64,000 nt of DNA, taken from Escherichia coli O157 typing phage 14. How positions within the stretch are numbered: position 1 is the stretch's first letter; each line of letters begins with the position of its first letter. The stretch lies in sequence record KP869112. One strand, 5' to 3'. Shown one piece after another: positions 14,919 to 64,000 of the stretch. The notes under the pieces were generated by a model, which saw only the letters and a program-made list of their open reading frames with translations, had not been told where the DNA came from and did no database searches. Position numbers and translations under genes: made by a program.

Positions 14919-14923
14919 TGACA

Positions 14924-15857: not shown

Positions 15858-15975
15858 CCACACATAGTTTGTAGAATATGGGGTACACTATGAGAACATT
15901 GTCCGAAGTTTTGGTGGTGATCCTGATGATCATTACGTCCATAGCGGCTGTTGCCGGAATACTCACGGGTGGAAC

Positions 15976-16188: not shown

Positions 16189-16309
16189 AGCACCGAGCCC
16201 ACACAGGTTCCTCATGCTAAAGCATGGCCTGAAGAGGCAAACGTGCATAATTCCTGTACATTGGGACGTATAAAACCCTGTTCACATTCTCATTTCCAGA
16301 GGAGATTTC

Positions 16310-18049: not shown

Positions 18050-18400
18050 TTATTATTTCATGTTTCACTGTTCACGTATAGATTGTTCCCGCATAGACTG
18101 TTTACGCCTGGATAGTTCACGCATAGATGATAAGCCATGCCATTCGTTTGCATGACAATAATTAACTTGTTTACAATAGATGACATAATATAAAAGCAGG
18201 GCAACTATTAGAAGATCATAGTTGCCTTGCTTGTTATGTCATGATTAACTAAATACAAGGCAACTATGATCTGATTAATAGATTGCAGACAAACTATCAC
18301 GGGGGTGATTGTTACTGCTTTTATATTATGTCGCGACTCCGTCGCGCCATGCCATTCGTTTGCATAGTTGCCTTATTGTTACAGATAAAATAATTGTATT
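18050..18400. repeat. cluster of direct and inverted short repeats in large non-coding region
   Basis: Four GTT(C/T)ACGCATAGA-like direct repeats at about 18060-18130; GGCAACTAT/ATAGTTGCC x4; CATGCCATTCGTTTGCAT x2; GACATAATATAAAAGCAG inverted pair. Confidence 0.6.
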
Positions 18401-18985
18401 GTTAATTATTTCTTATCTTTCTATTAGTCATCTAATGATTTCAGTTAGTATAGTAACGTACAGTAAACATTAGACGACTAAAGATTTCTCTGCTTATAAT
18501 AACCTAACGTGACAATTCCGGACTGTTTACGAAAAATGTTGACACCTGAGCTGATTTATGTTATGCAGTTTACACGAATAATTATTTTATGCAGGTATTG
18601 ACTATTCTGTTATTCTATGGTTGGAATAAATACTTAGCAGGCTATAGAATGGTGAGCGTACGTAAATTCTAAGATCTGGCGGCTATAGTTATGCCCGATT
18701 TTTCACGTAGAAAACGCTTTTATGAGTGTGTAAGTGTATGACTTATAAAGATTTTTAGTTGTTGACAAGATACTGAAGATGTGCATCAGGTTAAATTTTG
18801 TGCAATAGCGGCATTACGTGCAATTTTGGAAGGAAAAACGTGTAAAAAATGGCGCTGCTACCACACAATGAAAGATTATGCAATAGCTATTTTACATGTA
18901 TGTTTGTACAGTGGTGGTAATTGATGGCTTGTCGATTATTCCACTTGCCAGGCTGGGCCGTTTGTGGTAGGGGAAATACAGACAA

Positions 18986-19012
18986 AAAGAAAGGGGCCTT
19001 TTAAAGCCCCTG
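18986..19012 (-). terminator. rho-independent terminator (minus strand)
   Basis: GGGGC...GCCCC hairpin followed on minus strand by TTTCTTTTTG. Confidence 0.6.
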
Positions 19013-19029
19013 ATAGTTTAGTTAATAAA

Positions 19030-19449
19030 TTATAATGATTCGTATATTTCAAAAATCCGATTTGCCAGGTCGTTACGGTACCGGAATTTTTCTTCACGTT
19101 TGATCATTAGATCTTTGAAGCCGTATTCTTTAAGCACTTCATTAACTTTATAGCGGCATACCCTCATATTGTCTTGCGCGTCACCGATAAACTTGTTGCT
19201 ATGGTGCATGGCTTTAATTTCTTCTTCCAGGACCAGGGCAACTATGCGGACCGGATCAAGCTGATAGGCGGTAACATCCATGCGGCATTGTAAACGGCTT
19301 TTTACGTCTGCCACCGGGTATACTGCAACCTCTTCCCCGTCAACATTGACAATAATTAGTTTACCATCGATTTCGAATCCTTTCGCCGCCGGACCGTGAC
19401 AAAAAGCGTTATCAAAGCTATATGCCGGATTATTAGATTTGATGTTCAT
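19030..19449 (-). CDS. hypothetical protein (139 aa)
   Basis: ORF at distal end of minus-strand array; terminator downstream. Confidence 0.5.
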   Translation of the reverse strand: MNIKSNNPAYSFDNAFCHGPAAKGFEIDGKLIIVNVDGEEVAVYPVADVKSRLQCRMDVTAYQLDPVRIVALVLEEEIKAMHHSNKFIGDAQDNMRVCRYKVNEVLKEYGFKDLMIKREEKFRYRNDLANRIFEIYESL

Positions 19450-19596
19450 GGTGTTTTTACCTCTTAGTTAATTTTCTTACAACTTCCCTTCAAAAAAGAA
19501 TATAGCAAAACTGCCGATCCTTGTCAACCAAGGATAGCATAATTTTTATGTGATCAAGGGGCTTTATTGCCCCCTCTGATCGTGCAACTTGTTGTA

Positions 19597-23573: not shown

Positions 23574-23620
23574 AATTTACTTTATTGATGGCCCTGGAGT
23601 CAAGGCCATCTAAAAATAAA
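23574..23620 (-). promoter_or_regulatory. conserved promoter-operator element (copy 1 of 3)
   Basis: TTGACT-N18-TAAATT on minus strand with 24-bp hyphenated palindrome GATGGCCCTGGAGTCAAGGCCATC over the -35. Confidence 0.5.
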
Positions 23621-25834: not shown

Positions 25835-26142
25835 GATATTTTCTCCTATTTTCTTTGTTAGTGGCGGGNNNNNNNNNNNNNNNNNNNNNNNNNNNNNNNN
25901 NNNNNNNNNNNNNNNNNNNNNNNNNNNNNNNNNNNNNNNNNNNNNNNNNNNNNNNNNNNNNNNNNNNNNNNNNNNNNNNNNNNNNNNNNNNNNNNNNNNN
26001 NNNNNNNNNNNNNNNNNNNNNNNNNNNNNNNNNNNNNNNNNNNNNNNNNNNNNNNNNNNNNNNNNNNNNNNNNNNNNNNNNNNNNNNNNNNNNNNNNNNN
26101 NNNNNNNNNNNNNNNNNNNNNNNNNNNNNNNNNNNNNNNNNN

Positions 26143-27444: not shown

Positions 27445-27490
27445 AGTTTACTTTATTGATGGCCCTGAAGTCAAGGCCATCTAAAAATAA
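27445..27490 (-). promoter_or_regulatory. conserved promoter-operator element (copy 2 of 3)
   Basis: 46 bp identical to 28055-28100; TTGACT-N18-TAAACT with palindrome GATGGCCCTGAAGTCAAGGCCATC. Confidence 0.5.
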
Positions 27491-28054: not shown

Positions 28055-28100
28055 AACTGTGGTTAGTTTACTTTATTGATGGCCCTGAAGTCAAGGCCAT
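28055..28100 (-). promoter_or_regulatory. conserved promoter-operator element (copy 3 of 3)
   Basis: Identical to 27445-27490; a 36-codon hydrophobic ORF follows on minus strand (about 27925-28033). Confidence 0.5.
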
Positions 28101-28112
28101 CTAAAAATAAAC

Positions 28113-41237: not shown

Positions 41238-41295
41238 ATACAGTTCTCCTTAAAGGGGAGGCAGTTGTACTACCCCTCCCACTCTTTGTTAAACA

Positions 41296-49701: not shown

Positions 49702-51684
49702 TTATTTGATGTTATTCTTTGTATCGATCAGTTCACGGTATTCAATCATAGCAGGAGTGTCCCAATATTTCAAGCCCACATGCTTCAAAAGTGGATATTT
49801 CTTTTCCAATCTTGCAATATAGGCCTTCCCGCACTTAACCCGGTTGGCGATTAAGATTTTGGCACGATGATTTAGCTCACTGTGCTTCCACGCGGTGTTA
49901 CCTTCCCACTTGTGGAAATGTGGCCGATAATTTCCAAAATCCTGCATGGGGATAATTTTCCCTAATTGTCTATACAGGCTGTCATATGAAGTTTCATTTG
50001 CTGCGCGAGTCAGTAAGAATTTCCAAGCATCCTCTTTCAACAAATGTTCCACATTCTTCTCTGTAACATACTGGCAATCAGGATCAGTCCAAAGCAGACG
50101 AGATTCTGATACCAGGTACAGATCTTCACCTTCAGGAATCTGGAGTGCAGCACGCACACGGTCATAATTTTGCTGGTAGATGTTACTCATCTGGCCCAGC
50201 CAGCAGCTTCCCCGTTGGATATCCCCCTCATAAGGGATGCAATGCTTAATCTTCTTGAACTCTGCCTTCGTGAGGCGCTCACGATGGAAGTAGCCATCCT
50301 CTCTAAGCTTCTTAACCCAGTAGCCTGGCTCGTAACGAGTTTTGGTTTCACCTTTCTTCGCAGGTCGGCGTGGAAGCTCCGATAACAATTTGACCGTATC
50401 TGCAAAGAACGGATGGTGTGCCGCCTCTTTAAACTCTTTCACCAGATCCTTGTTCCGGCAATAGAAAACGTTGCGTCCGGTGATCTCGCTTAAGTAGTTA
50501 CACTTATTCCGGTTATATTTGCCGTCTCCGTCGTTAAATACAAGGTATACACCTCGTAAGAACTCCGACTTTCCGTAACGAGCATAGCCTATGCGGCCTT
50601 TATTTAAGCCGCCAGCGAAAATTTCACAATCGCCTAAGTCGCCAAGCCCTGTTTCTTCCCAACGGTTCCACATAAAGTTTTTGCCGAAGATGTGTCCGAA
50701 CACTCCACTGTTCTTCATCATCTCACGTGCTTCTGAGGATGTTTTTGCTGTCTCCAATTCCGCAACAACTTCTGCCCCACGAAGACGTATACCTTCTTTG
50801 ACAAAGGCCTCCAGGCGATCCTGGAATCCACCATCGTCGTGCCCCTCTATGGTCCATTCGCGCCCAGGGTTAATATTGCAATCCCCGATAGGGATCTCTA
50901 CACAGATTGCAGGGTAGTCTGTCAATGTTTCCAGAAACTTAGAGCGGTAAGGTTGGTGTCCCATCACCACACGGCTCTCATCAGAGCTGGTATAACCTTT
51001 CAGGATGGTCATTTTCCAACCATCTTTCTCGTAGTGATACTGCGCCTCAACCTTGTCACCTTCCAGCATCTTACTGGTCATAGGGTCGGTAACGGTAAAC
51101 GGAAACTTTGCATAGCGTAGGCATGACGCAATAGCAGTGCGATATTTCAGAACATGCTCTTTCTTAACATGGAACTGAACTTTTACCCCGTTGTGCTCTT
51201 CAGTCTTCCGCTCGCGGATCTTGGTAACGTTTGGGATACCCTGATCCAAGAACAACAGATATGTGCTTTCAACACCGTTGTGCACACTGATCACATCGAA
51301 AGTGTCCACCATGCTGAACGGGGCCTTTGAACCTACACCTTTATTACCTACCAGAGCGTTGCTGTTGCGCTTGGTTGACTCCCCGAGGTTCATGAAAGTG
51401 TTGCGGACCATCTCTTCCGACATGCCCAATCCAACGTCCTGCACAAAGAAGTATGGTTCAAGGTCTGTAGGAGAGTGAATGATGATCGGTACATCACCCC
51501 GTCCAGACTCAACATGGGAGTCCACAGCATTGAAGATTGGTTCACGGCAGCTTGCCAGCACCTTATCTTCGTAAATCCCTTTAATGATTAGCCCAAAAGT
51601 CTCTTTGTTCAGAGAAATTGAGCCCCTGGTGACCTCCATATTTCCGGTTAGTACTGCTTTAGTTTCATTACTGTTTACAATCAT
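49702..51684 (-). CDS. rIIA: GHKL-family ATPase, rIIA-like
   Basis: Bergerat-fold motifs EPIFNAVD (N box), DVGLGM (G1), GNKGVGSKAPF (G2) in N-terminal third of a 660 aa protein. Confidence 0.5.
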   Translation of the reverse strand: MIVNSNETKAVLTGNMEVTRGSISLNKETFGLIIKGIYEDKVLASCREPIFNAVDSHVESGRGDVPIIIHSPTDLEPYFFVQDVGLGMSEEMVRNTFMNLGESTKRNSNALVGNKGVGSKAPFSMVDTFDVISVHNGVESTYLLFLDQGIPNVTKIRERKTEEHNGVKVQFHVKKEHVLKYRTAIASCLRYAKFPFTVTDPMTSKMLEGDKVEAQYHYEKDGWKMTILKGYTSSDESRVVMGHQPYRSKFLETLTDYPAICVEIPIGDCNINPGREWTIEGHDDGGFQDRLEAFVKEGIRLRGAEVVAELETAKTSSEAREMMKNSGVFGHIFGKNFMWNRWEETGLGDLGDCEIFAGGLNKGRIGYARYGKSEFLRGVYLVFNDGDGKYNRNKCNYLSEITGRNVFYCRNKDLVKEFKEAAHHPFFADTVKLLSELPRRPAKKGETKTRYEPGYWVKKLREDGYFHRERLTKAEFKKIKHCIPYEGDIQRGSCWLGQMSNIYQQNYDRVRAALQIPEGEDLYLVSESRLLWTDPDCQYVTEKNVEHLLKEDAWKFLLTRAANETSYDSLYRQLGKIIPMQDFGNYRPHFHKWEGNTAWKHSELNHRAKILIANRVKCGKAYIARLEKKYPLLKHVGLKYWDTPAMIEYRELIDTKNNIK

Positions 51685-52181
51685 TTATTGCGCTCCTTGT
51701 AGTAGATATGACTCCCGAATTGAGCTGTCCTCTGCATCTTTTTTGCCCATTTCGGTCGTACTTTGGTTGTATGGTAGTGTGTTGCTCCACCTGTTATGTC
51801 CATAGCCATGTATGCAACATGGTTGTTATTATAGACCTTTAGAAGCATCTTTGCAAGACTTTTAGCGTGATCCCATGAATCTTTTTCTGTCACCTTAAAA
51901 GTTTTGCCGTGGTTTGTCCACGAAAACTGGTTAGGTTGGTAGACAATCTTTCTTATAGTGTCTGGGTATTTGGGGTGAGATTTCCTGTTTAGTGTGGCAA
52001 ACCCTGATGCCAGCATACCCATCGTGCCATCCCCTCTAGCCTCCCTGTAGATATTGCATGCCAGAATGTTTTCCTTAGTAGCTGAGGGCTTGCAAGTATG
52101 ATATACTTTTTGTTTTGGTGCTGCAACAACAGGCAGCGATAAAAATGCGCTCAAAATAATAGCAAAGATCTTAATTTTCAC
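51681..52181 (-). CDS. SleB/CwlJ-like cell wall hydrolase with signal peptide
   Basis: N-terminal signal sequence MKIKIFAIILSAFLSLPVVAA; NIYREARGDG motif typical of the family. Confidence 0.55.
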   Translation of the reverse strand: MKIKIFAIILSAFLSLPVVAAPKQKVYHTCKPSATKENILACNIYREARGDGTMGMLASGFATLNRKSHPKYPDTIRKIVYQPNQFSWTNHGKTFKVTEKDSWDHAKSLAKMLLKVYNNNHVAYMAMDITGGATHYHTTKVRPKWAKKMQRTAQFGSHIYYKERNK

Positions 52182-52230
52182 AATAACTCCAAATAGAAAA
52201 TCCCCGCCGAAGCGGGGGAGGTCTTAGAAA

Positions 52231-52611
52231 TTAATCGTAGTGTGCCAAAATCTCTCCATCGTTGCAAGTTCCCTCTACAAAGTTATGAAGATTCATGCAC
52301 TCATCTTGATAGAAGAATTTACCGCTTTTCAGCCGTAAGCCAAACAACTCCGCATCTCCACGATGGCAAGCCTCTACAAGTTCATAGATTTCATACGGCA
52401 ACTCTCCGTCGTCATGGAAGAACCCAGCCTTATCGTTGACATAGATGAAGAAATAATCACTGCTGTCGCAAGCGTCCAATATTTTAAACCAGATTTCATC
52501 TACATCTTTTTCTCGGATATCGATCACGCAAGTGGAGCTGCATTCGTACTCCTTCTCCGGCTCCTCGGTCAATACCACCAGGTAGTTTCCCCGCTTACCT
52601 ACTTTAGCCAT
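52231..52611 (-). CDS. hypothetical acidic protein (126 aa)
   Basis: ORF in minus array. Confidence 0.5.
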   Translation of the reverse strand: MAKVGKRGNYLVVLTEEPEKEYECSSTCVIDIREKDVDEIWFKILDACDSSDYFFIYVNDKAGFFHDDGELPYEIYELVEACHRGDAELFGLRLKSGKFFYQDECMNLHNFVEGTCNDGEILAHYD

Positions 52612-52620
52612 ACAACCTCC

Positions 52621-53805
52621 TTAAGCTTTAGCCAAAATGGCGCTAAACTCTTCACCAAACTCTTTTACAATCTTCATCAGGTTTGGGTATGCTTTGATCA
52701 GCTGAGCAACGATCTTGTCACGACCTTTACCGATAAGCAAGGCATTTCCTAAGGCATTAGGTTTCATCATCGCCATAAAGACTGAAAATACAAAATCTCG
52801 GTTCTCGTCCTTGAAGTTTTCCCAAAGGAAATCGAGAAAGTTTGCCACACAGCTAACAAGATCTTCGTCGGAGATACTTGCATTTTCCATCATATTACGA
52901 ATAGCGATGCAACCTTCAGATCCAAGAATCCACAAGATGTCTGGCTGTTTAGGACCTACGTATTCTTTGCAACCTCCTGCCATAATCCGACCGATTTCCG
53001 GTAAGTTGCGTTTCTTGGTGTGGTAAGTCCAGATCTCTACCGCTGCAGTGTGACCAATAGCACCTTGCAGAAGAACACGGGCCATAGCGTCAGAAATAAT
53101 ACCGCTGTCAAAATCGTGCAAGATATCAGATGCAGCAACCCAAGATCGCGGTGTGGCAAAAGATGGACAATTAATCTCAGCCATGGCCTCATAATTATCG
53201 ATAGCTGATGGAACTCTTTTCAGATATCCAATTACAGAGGAGTGCACCCCATTAAGGAATGCGTAGTCCTCAATAAACACCTCTGCATTGCTTGTAACCT
53301 CTACAATGATAAAACGGTTAGCCAGAGGGGCTTCGAGCGCCGAAAGAACCGCACCATCTGTAGAACGGTTACCAGCAGCCACAAAAACAGAACCCTTAGG
53401 GAATGCATAGGTACCGCACTTGTGGTCAAGCATAATTTGCATTGCAACCTTTTGCAGGTAGTTATCTGCATGAGTGAGCTCATCCAGAAAGATAATTCCG
53501 CTCCAGTCAGGATCCGCAGGCCAAAATTCTGGAATTGCAAACACTGTACGTGTAGTTCCATCCGCTTCTACAGGGATAGGTAGCCCAGATAAGTCGGCAG
53601 GATCTTTATCTGACAGTCGCACGTCAACAAGGTTGTCATCTCGCTCACCGAACATATTATCAGCGATCTGCTTCATCACCTGGCTTTTACCCACACCCAT
53701 TGGTCCCAAAATTAGGACAGATCGGCTATGACGTTGGGCAAACTGAATAATAGCTGGCAACTCACGGACAGTGATTTGACCACTTTCGAATACGTTTCTT
53801 GACAT
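52621..53805 (-). CDS. MoxR/AAA_5-type AAA+ ATPase
   Basis: Walker A LILGPMGVGKSQ, Walker B IIFLDELTHA. Confidence 0.65.
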   Translation of the reverse strand: MSRNVFESGQITVRELPAIIQFAQRHSRSVLILGPMGVGKSQVMKQIADNMFGERDDNLVDVRLSDKDPADLSGLPIPVEADGTTRTVFAIPEFWPADPDWSGIIFLDELTHADNYLQKVAMQIMLDHKCGTYAFPKGSVFVAAGNRSTDGAVLSALEAPLANRFIIVEVTSNAEVFIEDYAFLNGVHSSVIGYLKRVPSAIDNYEAMAEINCPSFATPRSWVAASDILHDFDSGIISDAMARVLLQGAIGHTAAVEIWTYHTKKRNLPEIGRIMAGGCKEYVGPKQPDILWILGSEGCIAIRNMMENASISDEDLVSCVANFLDFLWENFKDENRDFVFSVFMAMMKPNALGNALLIGKGRDKIVAQLIKAYPNLMKIVKEFGEEFSAILAKA

Positions 53806-54074
53806 TAGTAAAAGTCCTCTACTTGTGTGTAAGTGTTTTCAAAGTTTTCCAAAACAGATATCACATCGGATCTGTCAATATCATACGTGACTCTCCAGTT
53901 GTACGCAACCCTTTCTGCTGTTGCCTCTTCTGGCGCTAGTCGTCTGCTGGCATAAAAGAGTGTTGGAGTACACTTTCTTGCTTGCCCTCTAACTTTCCCA
54001 TAATAATATCTGTGAATATCTTTGTCAAAATTTAACTCTTTTTCTGCACGAAGTTCATATTGCTGGTATAACAT
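53805..54074 (-). CDS. hypothetical protein (89 aa)
   Basis: ORF in minus array. Confidence 0.45.
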   Translation of the reverse strand: MLYQQYELRAEKELNFDKDIHRYYYGKVRGQARKCTPTLFYASRRLAPEEATAERVAYNWRVTYDIDRSDVISVLENFENTYTQVEDFY

Positions 54075-54118
54075 CTCTACTACTCCTTAAGCAGCATCCT
54101 TGCCGCCATTCCTGCCCA

Positions 54119-54499
54119 CTAAAATGCAGTCCGAATCCAGACAAGGTTCTTATCTGCCCAATCATAGAGGCAAGTCATTGCACTATTGAATTGCTCACAC
54201 GGAGGATAATCTTCTTCCATCTGACGCATAGCAGAGCCTTGTGGGTAAAGCTCCCGTGCTGCAAACCACGCGTCGTAGTCATCAACGGTGTCGAAGTAGT
54301 ATACAACATCCTCCAACTCAGGATCGAACTTTGAACTATCAGGATCCAGTTGTTCAGGGAACTTGGAGCGTAACTTGCCAGCCACAATACTTGCCAACTC
54401 GCTAACATGCTTATTGTCCCACTCCACTAGCTTCCCGTCTTCAGTGATGCGTCCTAACCACTGATCATGAAGGTCAACTGTTGTCTTCCACAGGGCCAT
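54119..54499 (-). CDS. hypothetical acidic protein (126 aa)
   Basis: ORF in minus array. Confidence 0.5.
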   Translation of the reverse strand: MALWKTTVDLHDQWLGRITEDGKLVEWDNKHVSELASIVAGKLRSKFPEQLDPDSSKFDPELEDVVYYFDTVDDYDAWFAARELYPQGSAMRQMEEDYPPCEQFNSAMTCLYDWADKNLVWIRTAF

Positions 54500-54501
54500 T
54501 A

Positions 54502-54759
54502 TCAGTCCACCTCTTCTTCTCGTTGTAGTTCAAGATACCCGTAGGTCTGGACATCTTCAAGGGTGTGGAACTCCCCATCTGCCGCTAATGCACGAACAAC
54601 TTGGCACAAAACCTTATGAGGAACTTCATCCAGACCAAGATTCAGTGCAGGGAACACCTTATCTAAGTCAACAAAATAAATGAACTGTAGCTCACCAGCT
54701 TCAAAAGGTGTATCTTCAATAAACATCTTCTCGGCATTAGTCAAGATCTGCACTTTCAT
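54502..54759 (-). CDS. small acidic protein, MKV-type N-terminus
   Basis: MKVQIL...REEEVD resembles the MKVK family. Confidence 0.45.
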   Translation of the reverse strand: MKVQILTNAEKMFIEDTPFEAGELQFIYFVDLDKVFPALNLGLDEVPHKVLCQVVRALAADGEFHTLEDVQTYGYLELQREEEVD

Positions 54760-55136
54760 TATTCTACCTCCTCTTCTTTTTCTTCGGCATTAGTTTCATG
54801 GCTACCCCACTCTGGAGTTTCCACCTCGATAGTAAACTCACGCACTACACGGTAATTGCCCATGAAGCGCTCCACTTCGTCAAGGCTTATGGAGAAGCCA
54901 TTGGCAACCAGGTCTGCAGCACCCTCTTCTACCAGGTAGTCCAGATTGGCTTCCAGAGCTTCAGGTTCAAACCCTGTCAATGCAATCAGATAACCTTTCC
55001 CTTCATCAGGGAGGACAATACAGCCCAACTGATTTTCTTTAAAAAGGCAGTGACCATCATTATTGATTGGGTGTTCATTGCAGTAAATAGCTGCACGATA
55101 AGTAACTTTAGACATCGGTAAGGTCTCCTTAGGCAA
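54759..55136 (-). CDS. hypothetical acidic protein (125 aa)
   Basis: ORF in minus array. Confidence 0.5.
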   Translation of the reverse strand: MPKETLPMSKVTYRAAIYCNEHPINNDGHCLFKENQLGCIVLPDEGKGYLIALTGFEPEALEANLDYLVEEGAADLVANGFSISLDEVERFMGNYRVVREFTIEVETPEWGSHETNAEEKEEEVE

Positions 55137-55407
55137 TTGTCATTTTACATTCTTGAAATTTTAACACAAGACGGTGATTGTGTCTAGTGTCTAAAAAGAT
55201 TTTTTCAACCATCAGGTACACGGTATAACCGTCCATCTTGTTGACAACAAAATCTCCAGGGTAAGGGAGAGTGTCCCCTGGGCTGGGAAAACATAACCCG
55301 CTCAGAAAGGCATCGTCAGTGGTGGACTTAATAGATTTCCACACACTGTCTGCCTGAACATGCTCACCGACGTAATATACATTACCACATGCCTTCATCA
55401 TAGTCAA
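55129..55407 (-). CDS. hypothetical protein (92 aa)
   Basis: ORF overlapping junctions. Confidence 0.45.
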   Translation of the reverse strand: MTMMKACGNVYYVGEHVQADSVWKSIKSTTDDAFLSGLCFPSPGDTLPYPGDFVVNKMDGYTVYLMVEKIFLDTRHNHRLVLKFQECKMTIA

Positions 55408-56303
55408 ATCCCCGCATAAATTAAACTTGTATCAGTATACTTCTTTAACGGGTAAATATCCTGTCCGTAAATGTAGTCATTAAACACCTCATCTACCCAA
55501 AGACTGCATTTATACCCCATCATTTCTAAAACGCCCATCTCTTCATCAGTGAATTTATCACCACTCTTGCAGGATGTCAATACCTCATTTTGTACTCTTG
55601 CCAGTTCAAAAATGTTGTTAGCAATGTCACTATTAACGATCAGGTATTCACCCAAAGGGTGTGCGGCATTAAAGATGCACAGTGGGAGGTTGACGTAATA
55701 GTCCCCAGGTGTATAGAAATTGTTGAGGTCCTTCACCAGAACATTCTTATCAGTCACTTCATTTATAACATCGTGCATATCGCACATCTTTATATGCTTG
55801 AGGATTCCATCTCCCATCACAAAATAAAAACTTGCTGAGATACTCTCGGCATAGATCTTACTGGACCCGTTGTAGTTGTATTTTACGCGAATACTCACGG
55901 GAGTTTTTCCTGTCGCGTTAGCCATCATCCAAAGGAACGGAAGTTCAAACTTCTCTTCTGAGGAAACAAAAGGTGAAGTTGCCAGAGATCGGAAACCTCC
56001 AGAAAAGTTGAAAGTCACAGAACCGCTCCGGCGGTATGATACCGCGTATTCTACTTTTATATCGACATACCCGTTGGAATAGGTGTGTCCTTCATTATCT
56101 AAATATGTCCACTTATCAGACCCAGATACCAATCTACGCTCAATAACCTTCATCACTATAGGAATTAGTGGGTTGGTACAAACCGCTTTTGAAGTAGCTT
56201 TAGCATCTAAAGCCTCGTAAATTGCAGAAAGGATGTCTCCAGCTGAGAGATTGGTTGTTATATCCTGTTGCCACCGAGTACTAAAACTGTTAAGATTTGC
56301 CAT
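55404..56303 (-). CDS. hypothetical protein (299 aa)
   Basis: First gene of minus array; promoter upstream. Confidence 0.55.
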   Translation of the reverse strand: MANLNSFSTRWQQDITTNLSAGDILSAIYEALDAKATSKAVCTNPLIPIVMKVIERRLVSGSDKWTYLDNEGHTYSNGYVDIKVEYAVSYRRSGSVTFNFSGGFRSLATSPFVSSEEKFELPFLWMMANATGKTPVSIRVKYNYNGSSKIYAESISASFYFVMGDGILKHIKMCDMHDVINEVTDKNVLVKDLNNFYTPGDYYVNLPLCIFNAAHPLGEYLIVNSDIANNIFELARVQNEVLTSCKSGDKFTDEEMGVLEMMGYKCSLWVDEVFNDYIYGQDIYPLKKYTDTSLIYAGI

Positions 56304-56343
56304 GAGTGAGTGCTCCTATGTTGGTTTTCTTTTGAATGGGTGC

Positions 56344-56372
56344 ACTATATCGGAGATTTAGAGTAAAGTCAA
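56344..56372 (-). promoter_or_regulatory. sigma70-like promoter on minus strand (TTGACT-N17-TATAGT)
   Basis: Read on reverse complement upstream of 55404..56303. Confidence 0.5.
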
Positions 56373-56385
56373 CACGTTTTTGATG

Positions 56386-56414
56386 TTGACATCTGTTGAG
56401 ACAATTGATACGAT
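56386..56414 (+). promoter_or_regulatory. sigma70-like promoter on plus strand (TTGACA-N17-TACGAT)
   Basis: Divergent from the minus promoter; upstream of 56446 start. Confidence 0.45.
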
Positions 56415-56445
56415 TTCTTCACTTACAGAGCACGAGAGACAACTC

Positions 56446-57423
56446 ATGAATCTTGAAAAATATTATACACCAGAAGAGTTAGAGCGCTTGCTCAAAAAAT
56501 ATAGACGCAAACAGAATAACGCACGGAAACGAGATATAGAGTTCGACCTGTCGTGGGAAGAATACCTCCTATTTGGTAAAAAACTTTTAGGGGAGGGGGT
56601 ATGCGACTACACCCTTATACCTTTCGACATGCACACAGATGAGAACGGACTGGGAAATCCTTTCTACCCATCTTTGGAGCGTATAGATGATGAAGGTCCT
56701 TACGCAATTGACAATTGTTGTGTGGTAGGGTTGAGGTGCAATGCTCTGAAAGACTGTCTGGTAGATAAAAAGACTGCAATCCTGATTAAAGACAAAACTG
56801 ATCGAAAAATTGTCCAGCAGATGATGCTCCACCTGAGCGAAGAGCGTATGGAGAAATTGAAAGGTGATTATACTTTTGAAGATTTCATCTTGCAATACGG
56901 GACAGAAGAAGATAAACTAGCACTATTTGACGAAGAGGAAGAAGATATGTCACCGATGCAGGATTTTAAAAATTTCATGGCTGATCGTGCAGCCAACAAA
57001 CACATTTCAGACATCGTAAACGAGACTGTGACAGAAGAAATTGAAGAACAGACCTCTGAAGAAGAAAAAGAGCCTCAGGAGGTTGAAGAGGAGATTGCAG
57101 AAGAGGTTCCTGCACTGCCTGATGATGTTGAGATTGCTAAGGCTTACACTTTCTATTGTCAAACGTTCTACGATGCAGGTATGAAAGTTGATCTGTCGTT
57201 CAGCCAATTTAAGAGTTCGTATATTCGCAAATGCTGTGCTTTAACTGGTGAACGTCTCGGAGCTGGACTTAAACCACTGTTGGTGACCGACTGGAATAAA
57301 GGTTTCACTAAAGGAAACTTTATGGTAGTATCTCCAATTATGGAGAAAGCTATGACAGATCTTATGAAGACCACCCGCATGACAATGACCGAGTTGGCAG
57401 GTATTTTCAAACACGTTAAATAA
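56446..57423 (+). CDS. HNH-type (HNH_3-like) endonuclease domain protein, possible free-standing homing endonuclease
   Basis: PSLERIDDEGPYAIDNCCVVGLRCNALK resembles SLDRIDxxKGY...N HNH_3 motif, a second degenerate copy near C-terminus; start at internal ATG downstream of promoter (ORF track 56380..57423). Confidence 0.4.
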   Translation: MNLEKYYTPEELERLLKKYRRKQNNARKRDIEFDLSWEEYLLFGKKLLGEGVCDYTLIPFDMHTDENGLGNPFYPSLERIDDEGPYAIDNCCVVGLRCNALKDCLVDKKTAILIKDKTDRKIVQQMMLHLSEERMEKLKGDYTFEDFILQYGTEEDKLALFDEEEEDMSPMQDFKNFMADRAANKHISDIVNETVTEEIEEQTSEEEKEPQEVEEEIAEEVPALPDDVEIAKAYTFYCQTFYDAGMKVDLSFSQFKSSYIRKCCALTGERLGAGLKPLLVTDWNKGFTKGNFMVVSPIMEKAMTDLMKTTRMTMTELAGIFKHVK

Positions 57424-57435
57424 TGACAGGGGCCA

Positions 57436-58917
57436 ATGGCCCCTTCTGGAGTTTTAATGGATAGCAGAAGTTCAGAAATCATTGCCTCACAGAAAGATGA
57501 TGCCCTGAGAATGTTGCAGGCTGCACGTATGTATCTCCTTGAAAAGCTGCCGTTTTATGGCACACTACTGTCAGGGTTGCAGTTCGTAGAAAACCACACA
57601 TGGTGCTCCACCATGGCAACCGACCATAAACGCATCTATTACAGTCCTGAGTTCATTATGGGATTGGCTGATGAACGCAAGGCTATTCTTAAGGCTTCTC
57701 TAACTGACGAGCAGTTTGAGATGGCTGAAGTTTTCTATTCCCCAAAATCTGTGAAAGAGGTGGCCTTCCTTCTGTCACATGAGGTGGGACATATTATCTG
57801 TGATCACCTGGTCCGTGGTAAAAGCTTTGAGCCGGAACTGTTCAATATTGCTTGTGATCACGTTATCAACACAGGTCTTGTGGTTGACTTTAGCAAGCCC
57901 CCTTGTGTTTTCTTCCCGAAGGGGAAAAGCACTACGTTCGTGAAAGGTAAGCCTTTTGGATTCTTAGCCAGCTGCTACTGCGACATGAAGTTTCATGGAT
58001 GGATTGCTGAGAACGTCTATGCAGTTCTTGATAAGCAAAGAGATCAGAATAACGGTAAAAGTAAGAGCGGTAAAGGTGAGAACTCTCAAGGAGATAAGCG
58101 ACAAACCGATGATCACATGAGTGGTAACGGTGGCACCAGTGATGATCTTGGAAAGGCTATGGGGTATGATCAGCCACAACCTGTAATCAGTCAATCTGAT
58201 AAAGATCAGGCCATGCAGGACTCTGGCGATATGCTGGAGGCAGCAATGCAAGCTTCCGGAGGCCGTTGCCCTGAGGCGGTTCGTGAGTTTGTCAAGAATA
58301 GAGGTAAGCCTGTAATCAATTATATAGACATCATCAAGCAACGCATGTTGTCTAAACGAAAGGCTGAACTGACCTACAGAAAACCTGGTCGCCGATCTGG
58401 GTCTTTGACCAGCACAATGCGAAAAGTTGGGGCTATAAACAAGAACCAGCACGTTATTGTTCCTGGTCGTAATCCGGAAAACACCATAGATATTGTGGTA
58501 GCTTTAGACGTTTCTGGCTCGATCTCTCAAAGAACTTTAAAGAAAATGTTCAATGAAATCACCGGATTGTGCAATCTGTATAAAGAGTTTAAGGTTACAA
58601 TGTTCTGTTGGTCAACCGAGATTGGAGAGGTCAAAGTATACACTCGCGGCAACATAGACGAGATGATCAACTATGAGGTCCACTCAACATGGGGCACAAC
58701 AGCTGCTTGCGTGTTCGAGTATCTGGATGCCAACATACCAAATGCAAAAGATGTCATCGTCCTGACCGACCTATACTTTGAGCATAACTTTGAACAAAAG
58801 GCTGTTGACAACAAGTGGAAAAAGTACGATACTTTATGGGTTCTCACCGAAGGGTATAATAAAAATTATATCCCGAGCTTTGGGAAAACTGTGGAATTAA
58901 TCGAGTACGCCAAGTAA
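57436..58917 (+). CDS. metallopeptidase-like (HExxH) plus von Willebrand factor A domain protein
   Basis: SHEVGHIICDH zinc-binding HExxH motif; C-terminal LDVSGS MIDAS motif of VWA domains. Confidence 0.6.
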   Translation: MAPSGVLMDSRSSEIIASQKDDALRMLQAARMYLLEKLPFYGTLLSGLQFVENHTWCSTMATDHKRIYYSPEFIMGLADERKAILKASLTDEQFEMAEVFYSPKSVKEVAFLLSHEVGHIICDHLVRGKSFEPELFNIACDHVINTGLVVDFSKPPCVFFPKGKSTTFVKGKPFGFLASCYCDMKFHGWIAENVYAVLDKQRDQNNGKSKSGKGENSQGDKRQTDDHMSGNGGTSDDLGKAMGYDQPQPVISQSDKDQAMQDSGDMLEAAMQASGGRCPEAVREFVKNRGKPVINYIDIIKQRMLSKRKAELTYRKPGRRSGSLTSTMRKVGAINKNQHVIVPGRNPENTIDIVVALDVSGSISQRTLKKMFNEITGLCNLYKEFKVTMFCWSTEIGEVKVYTRGNIDEMINYEVHSTWGTTAACVFEYLDANIPNAKDVIVLTDLYFEHNFEQKAVDNKWKKYDTLWVLTEGYNKNYIPSFGKTVELIEYAK

Positions 58918-58923
58918 GAGAGG

Positions 58924-59190
58924 ATGTTATTTATGGCAACAGAGGTAGTAATCAAAGCTGAACGCCCAGTTAAAAAAGCTATCAACACGTTCCCTGTAGG
59001 AACAATTGTGAGCATGATCACAGAGTCAGGCCGTATATCTACACTGCTGATTGTGAAATCTGCATGTTCTTCTTGTGTGTGGGCTTACGATCTGGACGAG
59101 AAAGAACTAAAAGATTTTGTTGGGGAGCTGAAAGCAACCGAGCTCGATGCTCGTATCGAAGTATTTGGTGAAACTATGGAGGAGGAGTAA
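58924..59190 (+). CDS. hypothetical protein (88 aa)
   Basis: ORF in plus array. Confidence 0.5.
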   Translation: MLFMATEVVIKAERPVKKAINTFPVGTIVSMITESGRISTLLIVKSACSSCVWAYDLDEKELKDFVGELKATELDARIEVFGETMEEE

Positions 59191-59453
59191 TGACCACGAA
59201 AATCACTATTGCAGAACCGAAAGCTAACACGCAACCTATCGAAAAATTTAAATGTGGTGAGGTGGTAACATTTACACCAGACAATGAAGATGCTAAGATT
59301 TTCGCCATGGTCACAGCTGAGTGGATGTGCGACAATACCACACAGGTTCTGCGTTTTGACACCTATCTTACCGATGAAATCAGGAACGACAAGATCGTGA
59401 CTGGTGTTGATACTGAGATTGTTTTCTACAAGAGCTTTTTAGAGGGTTTCTAA
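59190..59453 (+). CDS. hypothetical protein (87 aa)
   Basis: ORF overlapping junction. Confidence 0.5.
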   Translation: MTTKITIAEPKANTQPIEKFKCGEVVTFTPDNEDAKIFAMVTAEWMCDNTTQVLRFDTYLTDEIRNDKIVTGVDTEIVFYKSFLEGF

Positions 59454-59454
59454 T

Positions 59455-59688
59455 ATGGCGAAAATTCGTAAATTATCCAACAATCAGGTTGTGAAAGACT
59501 TTGAATCTGGAGAGATTCTATATGTTCGTGATGCAGATGACGAAGGTGAAGATCTTGTTATGTTGGTGGGGCACGCTGAGGACGGATGCATCCAAGCTGT
59601 TTTTCTTGAAACAGCTATGGTGCACTGGATAGAGCTGGACTTGAAAGCACGAAAACCTAAAGCAGAAATCCTGATTTACGAAGATTAA
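59455..59688 (+). CDS. small acidic protein (77 aa), duplicated in inverted repeat
   Basis: Near-identical copy encoded on minus strand at 63792..64000. Confidence 0.5.
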   Translation: MAKIRKLSNNQVVKDFESGEILYVRDADDEGEDLVMLVGHAEDGCIQAVFLETAMVHWIELDLKARKPKAEILIYED

Positions 59689-59768
59689 CAAAAAGGAGAT
59701 AGCCGTGTTGAGCAAGCGTGAATGCGACAGCATTAGCCTGAATTCTTATAAGAAACAATGGTTTGGGG
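59480..59768. repeat. inverted repeat, copy A
   Basis: Reverse complement matches 63712-64000 with one mismatch (59624 vs 63856); repeat runs beyond window end and into the N-gap. Confidence 0.85.
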
Positions 59769-60154
59769 TAGAAGTTTGCCGACTGCGGCTAGGCTCCTAC
59801 CTGAACTTCGTTTATTATGAGAGCGATAGTCGTATCGTTTCTTATGAAGTGTTCTACACTAAGAACACCTTCGAACTGCGCCGTAAAGTGGAGGGTGGGA
59901 GAACTACCCCCCAGAATAATTGGGAAACTATCCTACCTACAGATGTTATAGGAAGTCCCCTGAATGTATCTGAAGATGAAAATCTTATGGTTCATGCTAT
60001 GATGGGACTTGACAGCTTAGAGCTGGCGATCTATGATATGTCCATCGAAGCAGTTAAGCTGGACTACATCGAAAACACTTTAGAGGAAGGTATCAAGAGG
60101 TTTCTCAGTGAGAAATTAAAAGACCACTTTCATAAGGAGCTATACCTGTTATGA
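59705..60154 (+). CDS. hypothetical protein (149 aa)
   Basis: GTG start with AAGGAGA RBS; partly inside inverted repeat. Confidence 0.45.
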   Translation: MLSKRECDSISLNSYKKQWFGVEVCRLRLGSYLNFVYYESDSRIVSYEVFYTKNTFELRRKVEGGRTTPQNNWETILPTDVIGSPLNVSEDENLMVHAMMGLDSLELAIYDMSIEAVKLDYIENTLEEGIKRFLSEKLKDHFHKELYLL

Positions 60155-60396
60155 AGACCCGTAAAGAACGTAACAAAATTTTACCTGGAGCTCTAGAACA
60201 CCTGATGAAGTGCAGATCTATCTGGCACTCTGCCAAGGAAGGGCAGAAGGTGGTTGTGGTTAGTGACAATACCAACCCGTTTGGAGATTATACCACCATG
60301 ATGGCCCCATATGTCCGTGATGGAGTTGTGGAAGTGGTCCCTTACAACGGTCTGCATGAACGGCACTTTGAAAGCACTTTGCTAGTGGAGCTATAG
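60151..60396 (+). CDS. hypothetical protein (81 aa)
   Basis: 4-nt overlap. Confidence 0.45.
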   Translation: MKTRKERNKILPGALEHLMKCRSIWHSAKEGQKVVVVSDNTNPFGDYTTMMAPYVRDGVVEVVPYNGLHERHFESTLLVEL

Positions 60397-60398
60397 TC

Positions 60399-60965
60399 AT
60401 GGCGGTCAATGTGGCTTACAACACAGGAAAGCTTGACAGAGACATTGGGTGTCTTGTCCTTTCAGATACAGAAGAGTATTGGGGTTATGGGTTGCTGTCA
60501 GACCCACACCCGAGCAACCTTGTATCAACAGTGCTATACCGCTACGACCCTGTGCCAACGGTACACGACAAAGACATTCACGACCTTCGGATCAAGTGTC
60601 TGGAAGATCTGCTGAACAATGGTTGCAACGATCTGCGGGTAGCCAAAGAGAAGCTTACAAACATTCACAAAGAGGAAGTGATGAGCACTCTCAGTAAGAG
60701 ATCAGTGCACAAAAAGATGATGCTGAACTTTGCAATGGGTATCTACATGGACGGGTATAAGGGCGGGGACCCGATTCTCAAGCTTCGCTGCCCAACACTA
60801 TGGGAAAGAGTGGTTGACAGTAAGGACGGTACTGCCCTGCTCGAACTCCACACTGCAGGTTGGATTTGGCGGTACGTAGACGGATACCCTCTGTGGGCAT
60901 GTGGACCTGGGGAATTTGTTGACAGACCTAGCGCGGTGGTGGACTTACTATTGCAGTTTGAATAA
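60399..60965 (+). CDS. hypothetical protein (188 aa)
   Basis: ORF in plus array. Confidence 0.5.
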   Translation: MAVNVAYNTGKLDRDIGCLVLSDTEEYWGYGLLSDPHPSNLVSTVLYRYDPVPTVHDKDIHDLRIKCLEDLLNNGCNDLRVAKEKLTNIHKEEVMSTLSKRSVHKKMMLNFAMGIYMDGYKGGDPILKLRCPTLWERVVDSKDGTALLELHTAGWIWRYVDGYPLWACGPGEFVDRPSAVVDLLLQFE

Positions 60966-61022
60966 AAAGGTGGGTTATAAGGTATTCATACACCTACCAA
61001 CAATACAACAGGAGAGACTGAG

Positions 61023-61298
61023 ATGACGAAAGAAGAGGCCGACGTATTAGATTTTGCACTAGAGGCTACGCAGGAGGCTTTGGTGTTAGCTTGGAAAATG
61101 AACCAGCGTGCTGCAGAATGCAACCGCCGCATCAATGAGATTCTAGGCATGTCTATGTATGATTTCACTATGCATGCCGGGGAGATTCCTGAATTAACTG
61201 CAGAGATGAATGATCTTGACAATAAAATTAATATCATTCTGAAGACGGCAGAAACAACTCACCAAACCGCCCGTAAATTTATCAACGAGAAGGTGTGA
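61023..61298 (+). CDS. hypothetical protein (91 aa)
   Basis: GGAGAGA RBS. Confidence 0.5.
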   Translation: MTKEEADVLDFALEATQEALVLAWKMNQRAAECNRRINEILGMSMYDFTMHAGEIPELTAEMNDLDNKINIILKTAETTHQTARKFINEKV

Positions 61299-61765
61299 AT
61301 ATGGACTACAGCTACTGCGGGGAAGAAGTTCCTTTTAACTACAGCAATCTTACCACAAGCAATCCGTATGAGACTCGCCACGGCACGCACATCATTGCCA
61401 TTGACTTTGATGGAACGTTTAATGCGAGCCCTTTCATCTTCTCCCGCCTGATCAGGGATCTGAAGAAGGAGGGGTGGACAGTCTACCTTGTGACTTTCCG
61501 ATTCATCACTCAAGACAACGTAGACATTGAGTATTGGCGCAAGGAGTTGGACGTAGGTGTGTTCTACACAGGCGGTGTGCAGAAGGCAGCCTACTTGGCG
61601 CAGTTTGATATCTACCCAGATATCTGGATTGATGATTCTCCGGCATGTATTCCGGCTAAGAATCAGTTAGAGTTTGCAATGAAGGAGATCGAGTATAAGT
61701 CTGCGGCTAAGCGGAACGGATGGCCCTTTATTATTGAAGATTACCCAGATCCTGAACCGGAGTAA
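61295..61765 (+). CDS. HAD-superfamily hydrolase, 5'(3')-deoxyribonucleotidase-like
   Basis: IIAIDFDGTF (HAD motif I DxDGT) and IWIDDSP (motif IV DD). Confidence 0.55.
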   Translation: MNMDYSYCGEEVPFNYSNLTTSNPYETRHGTHIIAIDFDGTFNASPFIFSRLIRDLKKEGWTVYLVTFRFITQDNVDIEYWRKELDVGVFYTGGVQKAAYLAQFDIYPDIWIDDSPACIPAKNQLEFAMKEIEYKSAAKRNGWPFIIEDYPDPEPE

Positions 61766-62010
61766 GAGCCATGAGGCGAAGATATCATTACCTGATGTGG
61801 AAGTTATATCAAAATGCTGCCAAAGCCTATCATATCATGTTTGGCAATGACGATCACCACATCATGTTACATCTCACCGCTATTGAGCATCACAATGAGT
61901 GGATTCATGCAATCGTGGCAGGTGATAAAGACTTTAAGTAAAATATACCTCAAAAACGTATAGTGCGGCTTTCTCTAGACGGAGACTGATTAAATGTGCA
62001 AGTGTAAATC

Positions 62011-63258
62011 TTATAATTGGAAAGTTAAAGGTGCCAAGCGCCCAAATGTTGTCGTTGATGTGCCTAAGAAACCTTCCCTGTGGATCCCTTGAAAATAAAC
62101 GCTTTCTGTCCAGCTTACTGGCTCTGTCTGTTCAACAAACTTAGCTGTTGCCAGCGCTCTGTAATGAATAAAATTGGCCCTAGGACTATTATTAGCAGAT
62201 TGAGCACCAATATCGTTACACAGGTTTCTGGAGAAACCACGGTACTGTTTTGTACCATTATTGAAGAAAATTCCACTAGTCCCGTACCCGCGAGCCATAA
62301 TTACTTCATGGGTATAGGTGATGTTAAGGCTTCTCCACGTGTCGTCACCCCAAACATCCTGACCATAAAACACATTAACAAGCTGTTGGTCATCAGGTTT
62401 GTGCATCCTTTCTGTGGCTATAATTGCACCATTAGGTCCACACATGAACCCTTTCCATGTCTCGCCCACCGGGATGCCTTTAAACTGGTCAAGAGTCACA
62501 TGCTCGGCTGGATAAACTAGTGTGTTTTTGCTGTTATTTCTTAAGAAATCGTAACCTGCAATCCAGAATCCGTTAGGACCACCAAAAATAACCGAGTTGT
62601 CATGAACTTCACAATTAATTCTTGGATTTTTCCAAGGACCTGTCTCTGGACTTTCAGATGTTTCACCGATCTTAACTGGAGTAGCGTGTTGACTTTTGTC
62701 AACATGAAGAGAGCCGTAAGTATTATTGCCAGAGCCGTACAGGTGAAGCATACCATCAGCCTCTGGTGCAGCAATTACCCACACTGTATTGTTTACGCCA
62801 CCCATTACTTCAACAAGTCTCTCAGGATGGGTGTCCAAATGCAACCCTGTTACGATCTGTTCCGGCAAAGGTGTCCACTCTCTGACACAAACATCGTTTC
62901 CACCTGCTGCCTCCGATCCGATAAGACCAGCTGTGCAACCAATATAGAAAAATTTATTATCGAATGTGCGGATTACAAATGCACGGTCAGCTCTCCAAAC
63001 ATGGTCTACGTTCCAAGCTGCCTCATTAGGATAGTTTATTGTATCAAGATCTCCAGTCCGACACTCTCCGAACCTATTATAGCCAGTAATATTAAGCTGA
63101 CCATCATCAAAAAGTATAGCTAAGCTATTTACATAGGATACTGTGTTGCTTGTACCATCACTGTTGTCTATTGGGTATGACAGAACAGCAAGTTCCTTAA
63201 TTCCACCCCTCTTATCGAGGAAATGACGACCAAGTTTTAGCAAAGGGATTGGAAGCAT
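62011..63258 (-). CDS. hypothetical Gly/Asn-rich protein (415 aa)
   Basis: Long ORF; composition reminiscent of beta-rich structural or carbohydrate-binding proteins but no diagnostic motif. Confidence 0.5.
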   Translation of the reverse strand: MLPIPLLKLGRHFLDKRGGIKELAVLSYPIDNSDGTSNTVSYVNSLAILFDDGQLNITGYNRFGECRTGDLDTINYPNEAAWNVDHVWRADRAFVIRTFDNKFFYIGCTAGLIGSEAAGGNDVCVREWTPLPEQIVTGLHLDTHPERLVEVMGGVNNTVWVIAAPEADGMLHLYGSGNNTYGSLHVDKSQHATPVKIGETSESPETGPWKNPRINCEVHDNSVIFGGPNGFWIAGYDFLRNNSKNTLVYPAEHVTLDQFKGIPVGETWKGFMCGPNGAIIATERMHKPDDQQLVNVFYGQDVWGDDTWRSLNITYTHEVIMARGYGTSGIFFNNGTKQYRGFSRNLCNDIGAQSANNSPRANFIHYRALATAKFVEQTEPVSWTESVYFQGIHREGFLGTSTTTFGRLAPLTFQL

Positions 63259-63306
63259 TGTGTTCTCCAGATAAGAAAACCGCCCCGTCAGGAGCGGTTA
63301 GATATA

Positions 63307-63611
63307 TTAACGTTGTGCAATTACTACGTCTACAATATCACCAACACCACAATACGTTAATTGCAGCAAGGTAACACTGTTAGCCTTGTTGTTAATAACA
63401 GGTGTTGCCGACAGGATAGCATACTTATCGTGCAAAGTCACGTTGTGACCTACAGCATCCTGAATGACATAGATAACTGCAGTGAATGGATAAGGTTTAT
63501 CTTCCGCTGATGTCCCAGGCCACTGTCCTATTGTAAAATCCCCTTTCGCGTGGACAACATACATGCTGGCCTGCCCGTTAGGTGTCCATGTCCCACTGGA
63601 CGCGTCAACCT
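63307..63611 (-). CDS. hypothetical protein, 5' end lost in assembly gap
   Basis: ORF runs into N-run 63612-63711. Confidence 0.4.
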
Positions 63612-63711
63612 NNNNNNNNNNNNNNNNNNNNNNNNNNNNNNNNNNNNNNNNNNNNNNNNNNNNNNNNNNNNNNNNNNNNNNNNNNNNNNNNNNNNNNNNN
63701 NNNNNNNNNNN

Positions 63712-64000
63712 CCCCAAACCATTGTTTCTTATAAGAATTCAGGCTAATGCTGTCGCATTCACGCTTGCTCAACACGGCTATCTCCTTTTTGTTAATCTTC
63801 GTAAATCAGGATTTCTGCTTTAGGTTTTCGTGCTTTCAAGTCCAGCTCTATCCAGCGCACCATAGCTGTTTCAAGAAAAACAGCTTGGATGCATCCGTCC
63901 TCAGCGTGCCCCACCAACATAACAAGATCTTCACCTTCGTCATCTGCATCACGAACATATAGAATCTCTCCAGATTCAAAGTCTTTCACAACCTGATTGT
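63712..64000. repeat. inverted repeat, copy B
   Basis: Reverse complement of 59480-59768; starts immediately after N-gap. Confidence 0.85.
63792..64000 (-). CDS. small acidic protein, duplicate of 59455..59688 (5' partial at window end)
   Basis: Translation identical to copy A except His to Arg at one position. Confidence 0.45.
   Translation of the reverse strand, partial: NQVVKDFESGEILYVRDADDEGEDLVMLVGHAEDGCIQAVFLETAMVRWIELDLKARKPKAEILIYED

Follow-up and report, generated by a model that had tools for sequence, protein, structure and literature searches.

Arms, spacer and genes at the window's right end

The 64,000-nucleotide stretch analyzed here (hereafter the window, from record KP869112) is a draft genome of a Vequintavirus (rV5-like) phage, and all of its best matches are to Vequintavirus. 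Its pattern of genes present and absent agrees with that listed for 'Phage 14' in Table S5 of PMC4429339. The window is collinear with phage JES2013 (NC_022323) over positions 86983-136910 and 1-19476 of that genome, at 92-100% identity, and it shares the canonical gene order around the repeat with rV5, JES2013 and typing phage 5 (KP869103). It differs from JES2013 in lacking positions 12375-17933 and the AP2/HNH gene at 127716-128441, and also in carrying N gaps, among them one of 274 N, and what appears to be a redundant contig. No tRNA genes were found in the window.

Near the right end of the window lie two arms of 289 nt each that are mutually reverse-complementary (Table 1). Their sole mismatch, at 59624 (A) and 63856, had been noted in a preliminary description of the sequence, and both a repeat search and direct comparison showed that account of the arms to be exact. 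Self-BLAST of the whole window revealed no other long repeat besides this pair, whose expected occurrence by chance is effectively zero. It is likewise correct that copy B begins directly after the 100-N run (63612-63711) and continues to the last base of the window. The repeat thus has a natural boundary at neither end, one being an N spacer and the other the window end. Copy A sits in a 37-kb unbroken stretch collinear with JES2013. Sequence at both contig breaks (59769 onward; 63512-63611) and in the JES2013 region that matches the 274-N gap contained no repeats or microhomology.

The repeat starts 25 nt into a 77-codon open reading frame (ORF) and ends 64 nt into the next one. Because it begins inside the first of these, the start codon is absent from the copy; hence, the earlier statement that a small gene is duplicated in opposite orientation holds for the orientation of the copy, but not for the gene, which is incomplete. 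The ORF at 61295-61765 had been labeled a HAD nucleotidase. A DxDGT motif is visible by eye, and the sequences IAIDFDGT and WIDD would fit HAD motifs I and IV, but profile support is absent, with no Pfam match even at E <= 10, no NCBIfam match and no PDB sequence match. The PHROG families matched by this ORF have no assigned function, and a single-sequence AF2 model was unusable (pLDDT 34.6). Finally, two ORFs described as Gly/Asn-rich do exist, but as pieces of two lateral tail-fibre genes, one comprising the N-terminal ~400 residues left by a deletion and the other the C-terminal ~100 codons.

Table 1. Features at the right end of the window (window coordinates)
Feature	Position	Strand	Remarks
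77-aa hypothetical protein (JES2013 ORF15, phrog_12046)	59455..59688	+	With the SNP, codon 57 reads CGC (Arg) in place of CAC (His)
Copy A	59480..59768	+	Within main contig; corresponds to JES2013 9779-10067 at 100% identity; allele A at 59624
149-aa protein (JES2013 ORF16, phrog_6790, annotated 'tail protein')	59705..60154	+	Only the first 64 nt inside the repeat
154/156-aa ORF (JES2013 ORF20)	61295..61765	+	DxDGT motif; no HAD profile match
Truncated giant Ig-like/intimin-type lateral tail fibre	62011..63258	-	415 aa, of which the first ~394-400 are native
Deletion junction	62058..62077	.	5.56 kb, JES2013 12375-17933 missing; 10-nt microhomology ATGTGCCTAA
3' end of 581-aa lateral tail fibre gene	63307..63611	-	C-terminal ~100 codons; cut by contig end
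100-N spacer	63612..63711	.	Between concatenated contigs
Copy B	63712..64000	-	Very likely a stand-alone 289-nt contig, reversed; equals copy A with one central SNP at 63856

Relatives and a sibling record

Each of 117 related phage records contains the 289-nt sequence as a single copy, as does each of 20 independent 20-kb contexts drawn from Logan, ENA and NCBI assemblies, in which the gene order is identical. The viral contig collection searched did not contain a conserved 50-mer from the repeat. At the site corresponding to 59624, 29 of 30 relatives carry allele A; the G allele nevertheless exists in nature, in phage AlexBoehm. The window itself is a mosaic whose left part, up to 62077, is 100% JES2013-like and whose remaining right part is 100% MaxBurger/HeinrichReichert-like.

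Evidence on how such records were assembled comes from KP869102 (E. coli O157 typing phage 4), a sibling record that consists of nine contigs with 10-N and 100-N runs between them. In this record, the contigs on either side of a 100-N run do not follow one another in genomic order and orientation, and the assembler's own gaps have other lengths. Neighbouring contigs share overlaps of exactly 144 nt (k-1), and there are redundant contigs that are 95-98% identical to their twins. One redundant contig, at 16131-16440, shows its first mismatch at position 145. Another, at 140835-141123, is exactly 289 nt long, reversed and located at the tail of the record with 100-N spacers on both sides, and it differs from its twin at 140734-140446 by one mismatch, again at position 145. 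This last contig therefore resembles copy B in its length of 2 x 145 - 1, in its single difference at position 145, in its reversed orientation after a 100-N spacer, and in having a twin inside a larger contig. It is derived, however, from another locus, corresponding to JES2013 120709-120997 rather than to 9779-10067 as for copy B.

An independent assembly also bears on the spacer in the window. A Logan contig of SRR1391173 stops 21 nt before the 100-N run, which indicates that the spacer marks a real contig end. The 100-N gap does not imply adjacency of the contigs that flank it.

Origin of the second copy

Copy B is very likely a leftover bubble-arm contig from a de Bruijn graph assembly of short reads with k = 145, and not a chromosomal neighbour of copy A. 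The mismatch at 63856 is flanked by 144 nt on either side and so falls at the exact center of the copy, which makes 289 equal to 2k-1 for k = 145 and places the single difference at position k. An arbitrary cut at the window end would produce exact centering with a probability of about 1/289. The sequence of copy B is the copy A haplotype with one private SNP. Its twin lies well inside a long contig, its inner end abuts the N run, and its outer end coincides with the window end. The value of k was read off the data, from the 144-nt overlaps in the sibling record together with the 289-nt arms. The sibling assemblies, including KP869102, were made with Velvet, for which a k range of 90-120, not 145, is stated (PMC4429339). 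We infer both the assembler and its k value for the window. Base 64000 is probably the end of both the contig and the record, as is suggested by the symmetry of copy B and by the sibling record.

A plausible course of events would begin with a read set that holds two alleles at one site, A and G at 59624 (His57 versus Arg in the 77-aa hypothetical protein), where the second allele could come from a variant carried by a minority of the phage stock or from a recurrent sequencing error. The assembler would retain the major allele in the main contig, as copy A, and would emit the minor-allele path as a separate node containing every 145-mer with the variant base, a node that is centered on the variant and 2 x 145 - 1 = 289 nt long. 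If the record was then built by concatenating scaffolds and leftover contigs arbitrarily, without regard to order or orientation and with 100-N spacers between them, and if the minor-allele contig happened to be placed last and reversed, an apparent inverted repeat around 3.9 kb would result. In a textbook bubble the main path is split as well. The main path is unsplit here, which suggests that the assembler resolved it and left the minor arm orphaned.

It follows from the exactly central SNP, and from a length equal to that of the sibling's complete contig, that the repeat very probably measures exactly 289 nt, contradicting the earlier expectation that it extends beyond what is seen. The suggestion of a scaffold artefact was right in spirit, but what follows the spacer does not appear to be a mis-join or a unique contig in the wrong orientation; it is very probably a redundant 2k-1 SNP-bubble contig. 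In all likelihood, then, the inverted repeat is an assembly leftover and not a feature of the phage. Because no invertible or recombinogenic element would be present, it would carry no biological importance. Its interest is instead practical, in that draft phage records concatenated with N spacers contain orphaned variant contigs of length 2k-1, which look like inverted or direct repeats. A sole mismatch that is exactly central, combined with a length of 2k-1, offers a quick flag for such contigs that requires no reads.

Alternatively, copy B could belong to a closely related second phage, present through a mixed stock or cross-contamination, as the beginning of one of its longer contigs, and would then represent an orthologue rather than a bubble arm. 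The divergence of redundant contigs from their twins in KP869102 is suggestive of mixed populations in the project, and both the mosaic structure on either side of 62077 and the natural occurrence of the G allele in AlexBoehm would fit such a source. However, copy B is identical to copy A except for the central SNP, AlexBoehm differs from copy B at one other position, and the exactly central difference and the 289-nt length would both have to be coincidences. We regard a second phage as a very unlikely source. Cross-contamination by typing phage 4 or 5, which belong to the same project, was rejected because their sequences show 3 and 6 differences from copy B, respectively.

Another explanation is a scaffolder mis-join, wherein read pairs truly connect the main contig's end with the inverted copy, either through a foldback junction in a sub-population of molecules or through chimeric library fragments. 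The window assembly and the Logan assembly both break near 63590-63611, so the reads do branch there, and the 274-N gap in the window is typical of scaffolding with estimated gap sizes. Nevertheless, 100-N runs in the sibling record join contigs without any genomic adjacency, a 289-nt node with a central SNP is explained without a junction, and the two break points lack microhomology or repeats. True linkage of this kind is thus extremely unlikely.

A genuine inverted duplication or an invertible segment, which the preliminary description had also entertained, would place copies of at least 289 bp around 3.9 kb or more of DNA able to flip by recombination, whether homologous or site-specific. 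In favor of this reading, the record does contain two inverted copies that are nearly identical, the 5.56 kb deletion is a real rearrangement situated only 1.5 kb from the gap, and the presence of tail-fibre gene fragments between the arms is reminiscent of the G segment of Mu and the C segment of P1. In these two systems, a serine invertase gene (Gin or Cin) adjoins the segment, short crossover sites lie in the fibre gene at the boundary between its constant and variable parts, and the segment carries alternative C-terminal exons in opposite orientations. The likeness is superficial and goes no further than inverted repeats around a few kilobases of a myophage genome that include tail-fibre coding sequence. 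When the ten ORFs in 57436-63258, among them every complete ORF between the arms, were scanned against Pfam and PHROG, no recombinase or transposase was found, and no recombinase is annotated in the matching part of JES2013. Hence, no invertase of the Gin/Cin/Pin/Min type adjoins the segment, and no ORF of the segment matches a transposase family, whereas an insertion sequence or composite transposon with terminal inverted repeats would encode a transposase between or within the repeats. Furthermore, the arms do not coincide with crossover sites at a constant/variable junction of a fibre gene, but consist of sequence from the small hypothetical gene and 64 nt at the 5' end of its neighbour, which are unrelated to the fibres, and the fibre pieces themselves are products of a deletion and a contig end.

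Conservation of both copies would also be expected of a functional segment, but relatives hold one per genome (137 of 137 in the phage records and long contigs together). If the duplication were genuine and the gap short, then the first ~480 codons of the 581-aa fibre gene would be missing and the structural module would no longer be connected. Finally, an exactly central mismatch and a length of 2k-1, with the same pattern in the sibling's leftover contig, argue against a natural duplication. A genuine or invertible segment is thus contradicted by several lines of evidence and is exceedingly improbable. Similarly improbable is the proposal that both copies are real in at least part of the stock, through a foldback duplication of the ORF15/ORF16 region that was joined beyond the tail-fibre gene and arose with the 5.56 kb deletion in a headful-packaging phage; the 2k-1 geometry would then be coincidental.

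Truncated tail fibres and the 5.56 kb deletion

The two fibre fragments correspond to much larger genes in related phages. The Ig-like fibre matches positions 1-408 of the 1878 positions in the phrog_15684 profile, and relatives carry a gene of 1872-1878 aa (~1875 aa) in the place of this 415-aa product. The counterpart of the second fragment is annotated in relatives as 'lateral tail fiber protein with glycosidase domain', and homologues of this 581-aa fibre are matched by PF26208/PF26209.

The deletion at 62077, which lies only 1.5 kb from the gap, takes out JES2013 ORF23-25 together with some 78% of the gene for the Ig-like fibre, as compared with all relatives. Its junction is present in none of the 117 phage records, and it was not found in exact-match scans of viral, genome and metagenome contig collections. 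The same junction does occur, at 100% identity, in the independent Logan contig of SRR1391173, which is identical to the window over 2474 nt, and the deletion is therefore a real feature. Although it falls outside the question of the repeat, the loss of the greater part of the Ig-like lateral tail fibre could bear on the typing phage's narrower lytic spectrum.

Origin of the inverted repeat

Megablast of the window against 50,697 phage records assigned it to the rV5-like E. coli myophages (Vequintavirus), and the complete genome of phage JES2013 (NC_022323) was aligned to it locally (see table). Repeat analysis of the region and a base-by-base comparison showed that the two arms of the inverted repeat (copy A, inside the main contig, and copy B, after a run of 100 N) are reverse complements across 289 nt with a single mismatch, A at 59624 versus the complement of 63856, exactly as the preliminary description had them. 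Self-BLAST of the whole 64-kb window revealed no other long repeat. The piece after the spacer maps to JES2013 in reverse and so covers a second time, inverted, a sequence that lies 4 kb further upstream. The repeat extends from codon 9 to codon 77 of the gene for a hypothetical 77-aa protein, then across a 16-nt spacer and 64 nt into the neighbouring gene. At codon 57 of the 77-aa protein, the mismatch changes CAC (His) to CGC (Arg).

Coordinates of features in the window and their JES2013 counterparts
Window	Feature	JES2013	Remarks
1029-49701	aligned block	86983-136910	collinear
23574-23609, 27445-27490, 28065-28110	conserved intergenic element ATGGCCTTGACTTCAGGGCCATCAATAAAGTAAACT, three copies		minus strand; ~36-46 nt
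25869-26142	274 N	111825-111972	stands in for about 148 bases
49702-62076	aligned block	1-12374	100% identity over final 4 kb
59455-59688	77-aa hypothetical protein		phrog_12046
59480-59768	copy A
59705-60154	gene next to 77-aa gene		phrog_6790
62058-62077	deletion junction		10-nt microhomology ATGTGCCTAA; affects 61994-63258
62058-63611	aligned block	17934-19476	follows 5.56 kb deletion
	415-aa ORF		minus strand; matches phrog_15684 profile positions 1-408 of 1878
	C-terminal ~100 codons of 581-aa lateral tail fibre gene		minus strand
63612-63711	100 N	no counterpart
63712-64000	copy B	10067 down to 9779	reverse orientation

The mismatch in copy B is flanked by 144 nt on each side (63712-63855 and 63857-64000). 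Taken together, all k-mers holding one variant base yield a sequence 2k-1 long with the variant at its centre, and 289 = 2 x 145 - 1. An arbitrary cut by the window end in a longer repeat would leave the mismatch at the exact centre in only about 1/289 of cases, so the position of this sole mismatch speaks against the earlier suggestion that the repeat extends further.

The same signature is evident in KP869102, the "partial genome" of the rV5-like E. coli O157 typing phage 4 (TP4). Dissection of the full record yielded nine contigs out of genomic order, joined by 10-N and 100-N runs. At its tail a reversed contig (140835-141123), precisely 289 nt long, sits between 100-N spacers; its twin (140734-140446) differs by a single mismatch at position 145. 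The first mismatch in a redundant contig (16131-16440) likewise falls at position 145, and contig 138992-140734 shares precisely 144 nt, or k-1, at its end with the beginning of contig 1. The value k = 145 was taken from the sequences themselves and not from PMC4429339, which describes Velvet assembly into 1-7 contigs per phage and states k = 90-120. Redundant variant contigs of 289, 310, 484 and 1743 nt (95-99.7% identity to their twins) inflate KP869102 to 141.7 kb, which suggests that the sampled phage population was mixed.

Since KP869102 shows both k = 145 and leftovers after 100 N, this pipeline signature completely explains copy B. A de Bruijn graph assembler would have emitted the minor arm of a SNP bubble unmerged, giving 289 nt at k = 145, and the same pipeline would have appended this leftover contig after 100 N. 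Copy B is very probably such an orphan 2k-1 bubble arm. The 100 N is a concatenation mark, and N runs of any other length (10 N, 274 N) are scaffolding gaps left by the assembler itself. The inverted repeat is an assembly artefact, not a phage feature; the preliminary description was right in spirit in allowing for one, whereas there is no support for its longer repeat, its duplicated gene, its invertible segment or its HAD nucleotidase.

A genuine inverted duplication is unseen in relatives. The 289-nt query occurs in exactly one place per record in 117 phage records, and exact-protein look-ups of two genes retrieved 20 independent long contigs (Logan, ENA and NCBI assemblies), each with one repeat copy per 20-kb context. 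All 20 share the gene order 77 aa, 149 aa, 81 aa, 188 aa and so on, followed on the opposite strand by the ~1875-aa and 581-aa fibres. Of 30 relatives, 29 carry the copy A allele at the mismatch; G occurs solely in AlexBoehm, which differs from copy B at one further position, and copy B is therefore the copy A haplotype with one private SNP. Cross-contamination from typing phages 4 and 5 was excluded as its source (3 and 6 differences).

Invertible segments of the Mu G/Gin and P1 C/Cin types need a serine invertase next to them, crossover sites within a fibre gene and alternative C-terminal exons, whereas the window has none of the three; ten ORFs scanned gave zero matches to recombinase, invertase or transposase families. 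The terminal repeats of IS elements or transposons need a transposase, which is absent from the segment.

The interval separating the arms holds JES2013 ORF16-21, all small and hypothetical, as well as an ORF23 stump of 32 codons. Solely the IAIDFDGT and WIDD motifs, spotted by eye, favour a HAD label for the ORF at 61295-61765; this ORF has no Pfam match even at E <= 10, no NCBIfam match and no PDB sequence match, and its single-sequence AlphaFold model (pLDDT 34.6) is unusable.

Deletion in the lateral tail fibre gene

Relative to every related phage, 5.56 kb is missing (JES2013 12375-17933). The deletion takes out ORF23-25, except for the stump, and about 78% of the gene for the giant Ig-like/intimin-type lateral tail fibre (phrog_15684), cutting its ~1875-aa product to 415 aa. 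The junction occurs in none of the 117 phage records and is also missing from three large contig collections. An exact-sequence look-up retrieved the truncated protein from a single contig, Logan SRR1391173_307 (2474 nt). This contig matches window 63590-61117 with 100% identity and, in an independent read assembly, crosses the junction without branching. The deletion is real: this contig carries the junction, and the microhomology is far too short for collapse at k = 31 (Logan) or k = 145. The deletion form is apparently dominant in the phage stock.

A sharp mosaic boundary separates 58000-62076, with 100% identity to JES2013, from 62077-63611, with 99.0%; the latter is 100% identical to MaxBurger, HeinrichReichert, PMBT16 and "Campylobacter phage C12". 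This mosaicism could reflect natural recombination or a mixed-stock consensus. About 16 unannotated UNVERIFIED records (MG0656xx; "Campylobacter phage C7, C9, C12, C15, A12a...") show 96-100% identity to E. coli Vequintaviruses, and their host labels look doubtful.

Other features of the window

The window lacks both an ORF23 homologue and the AP2/HNH homing-endonuclease gene (JES2013 127716-128441), the latter being precisely missing at 41234-41238 in the alignment. As is typical of a mobile endonuclease gene, it is present in some Vequintaviruses and absent from others. Table S5 of PMC4429339 gives the AP2 gene for phage 4 only, and PROKKA4_00064, which corresponds to ECTP4_00494, the ORF23 homologue, as present in phages 4 and 5 and missing from phage 14. 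With this pattern of genes, typing phage 14 is the most probable source of the window. RefSeq entries of relatives and PHROGs label a 493-aa protein (57436-58917) "HNH endonuclease"; Pfam finds DUF2201_N (putative metallopeptidase) and a VWA-like DUF2201 domain, and the HNH label appears to be a propagated annotation error.

The TP4 assembly breaks in the same interval as the 274-N run (JES2013 111695/111814), where no repeat that might cause the recurrent break was found in JES2013. Three copies of the ATGGCCTTGACTTCAGGGCCATCAATAAAGTAAACT element, with zero expected by chance, lie in the early-gene cluster. In this element, probably a repeated promoter/operator of early genes, a palindrome, ATGGCC...GGCCAT, overlaps a promoter-like TTGACT-N18-TAAACT.
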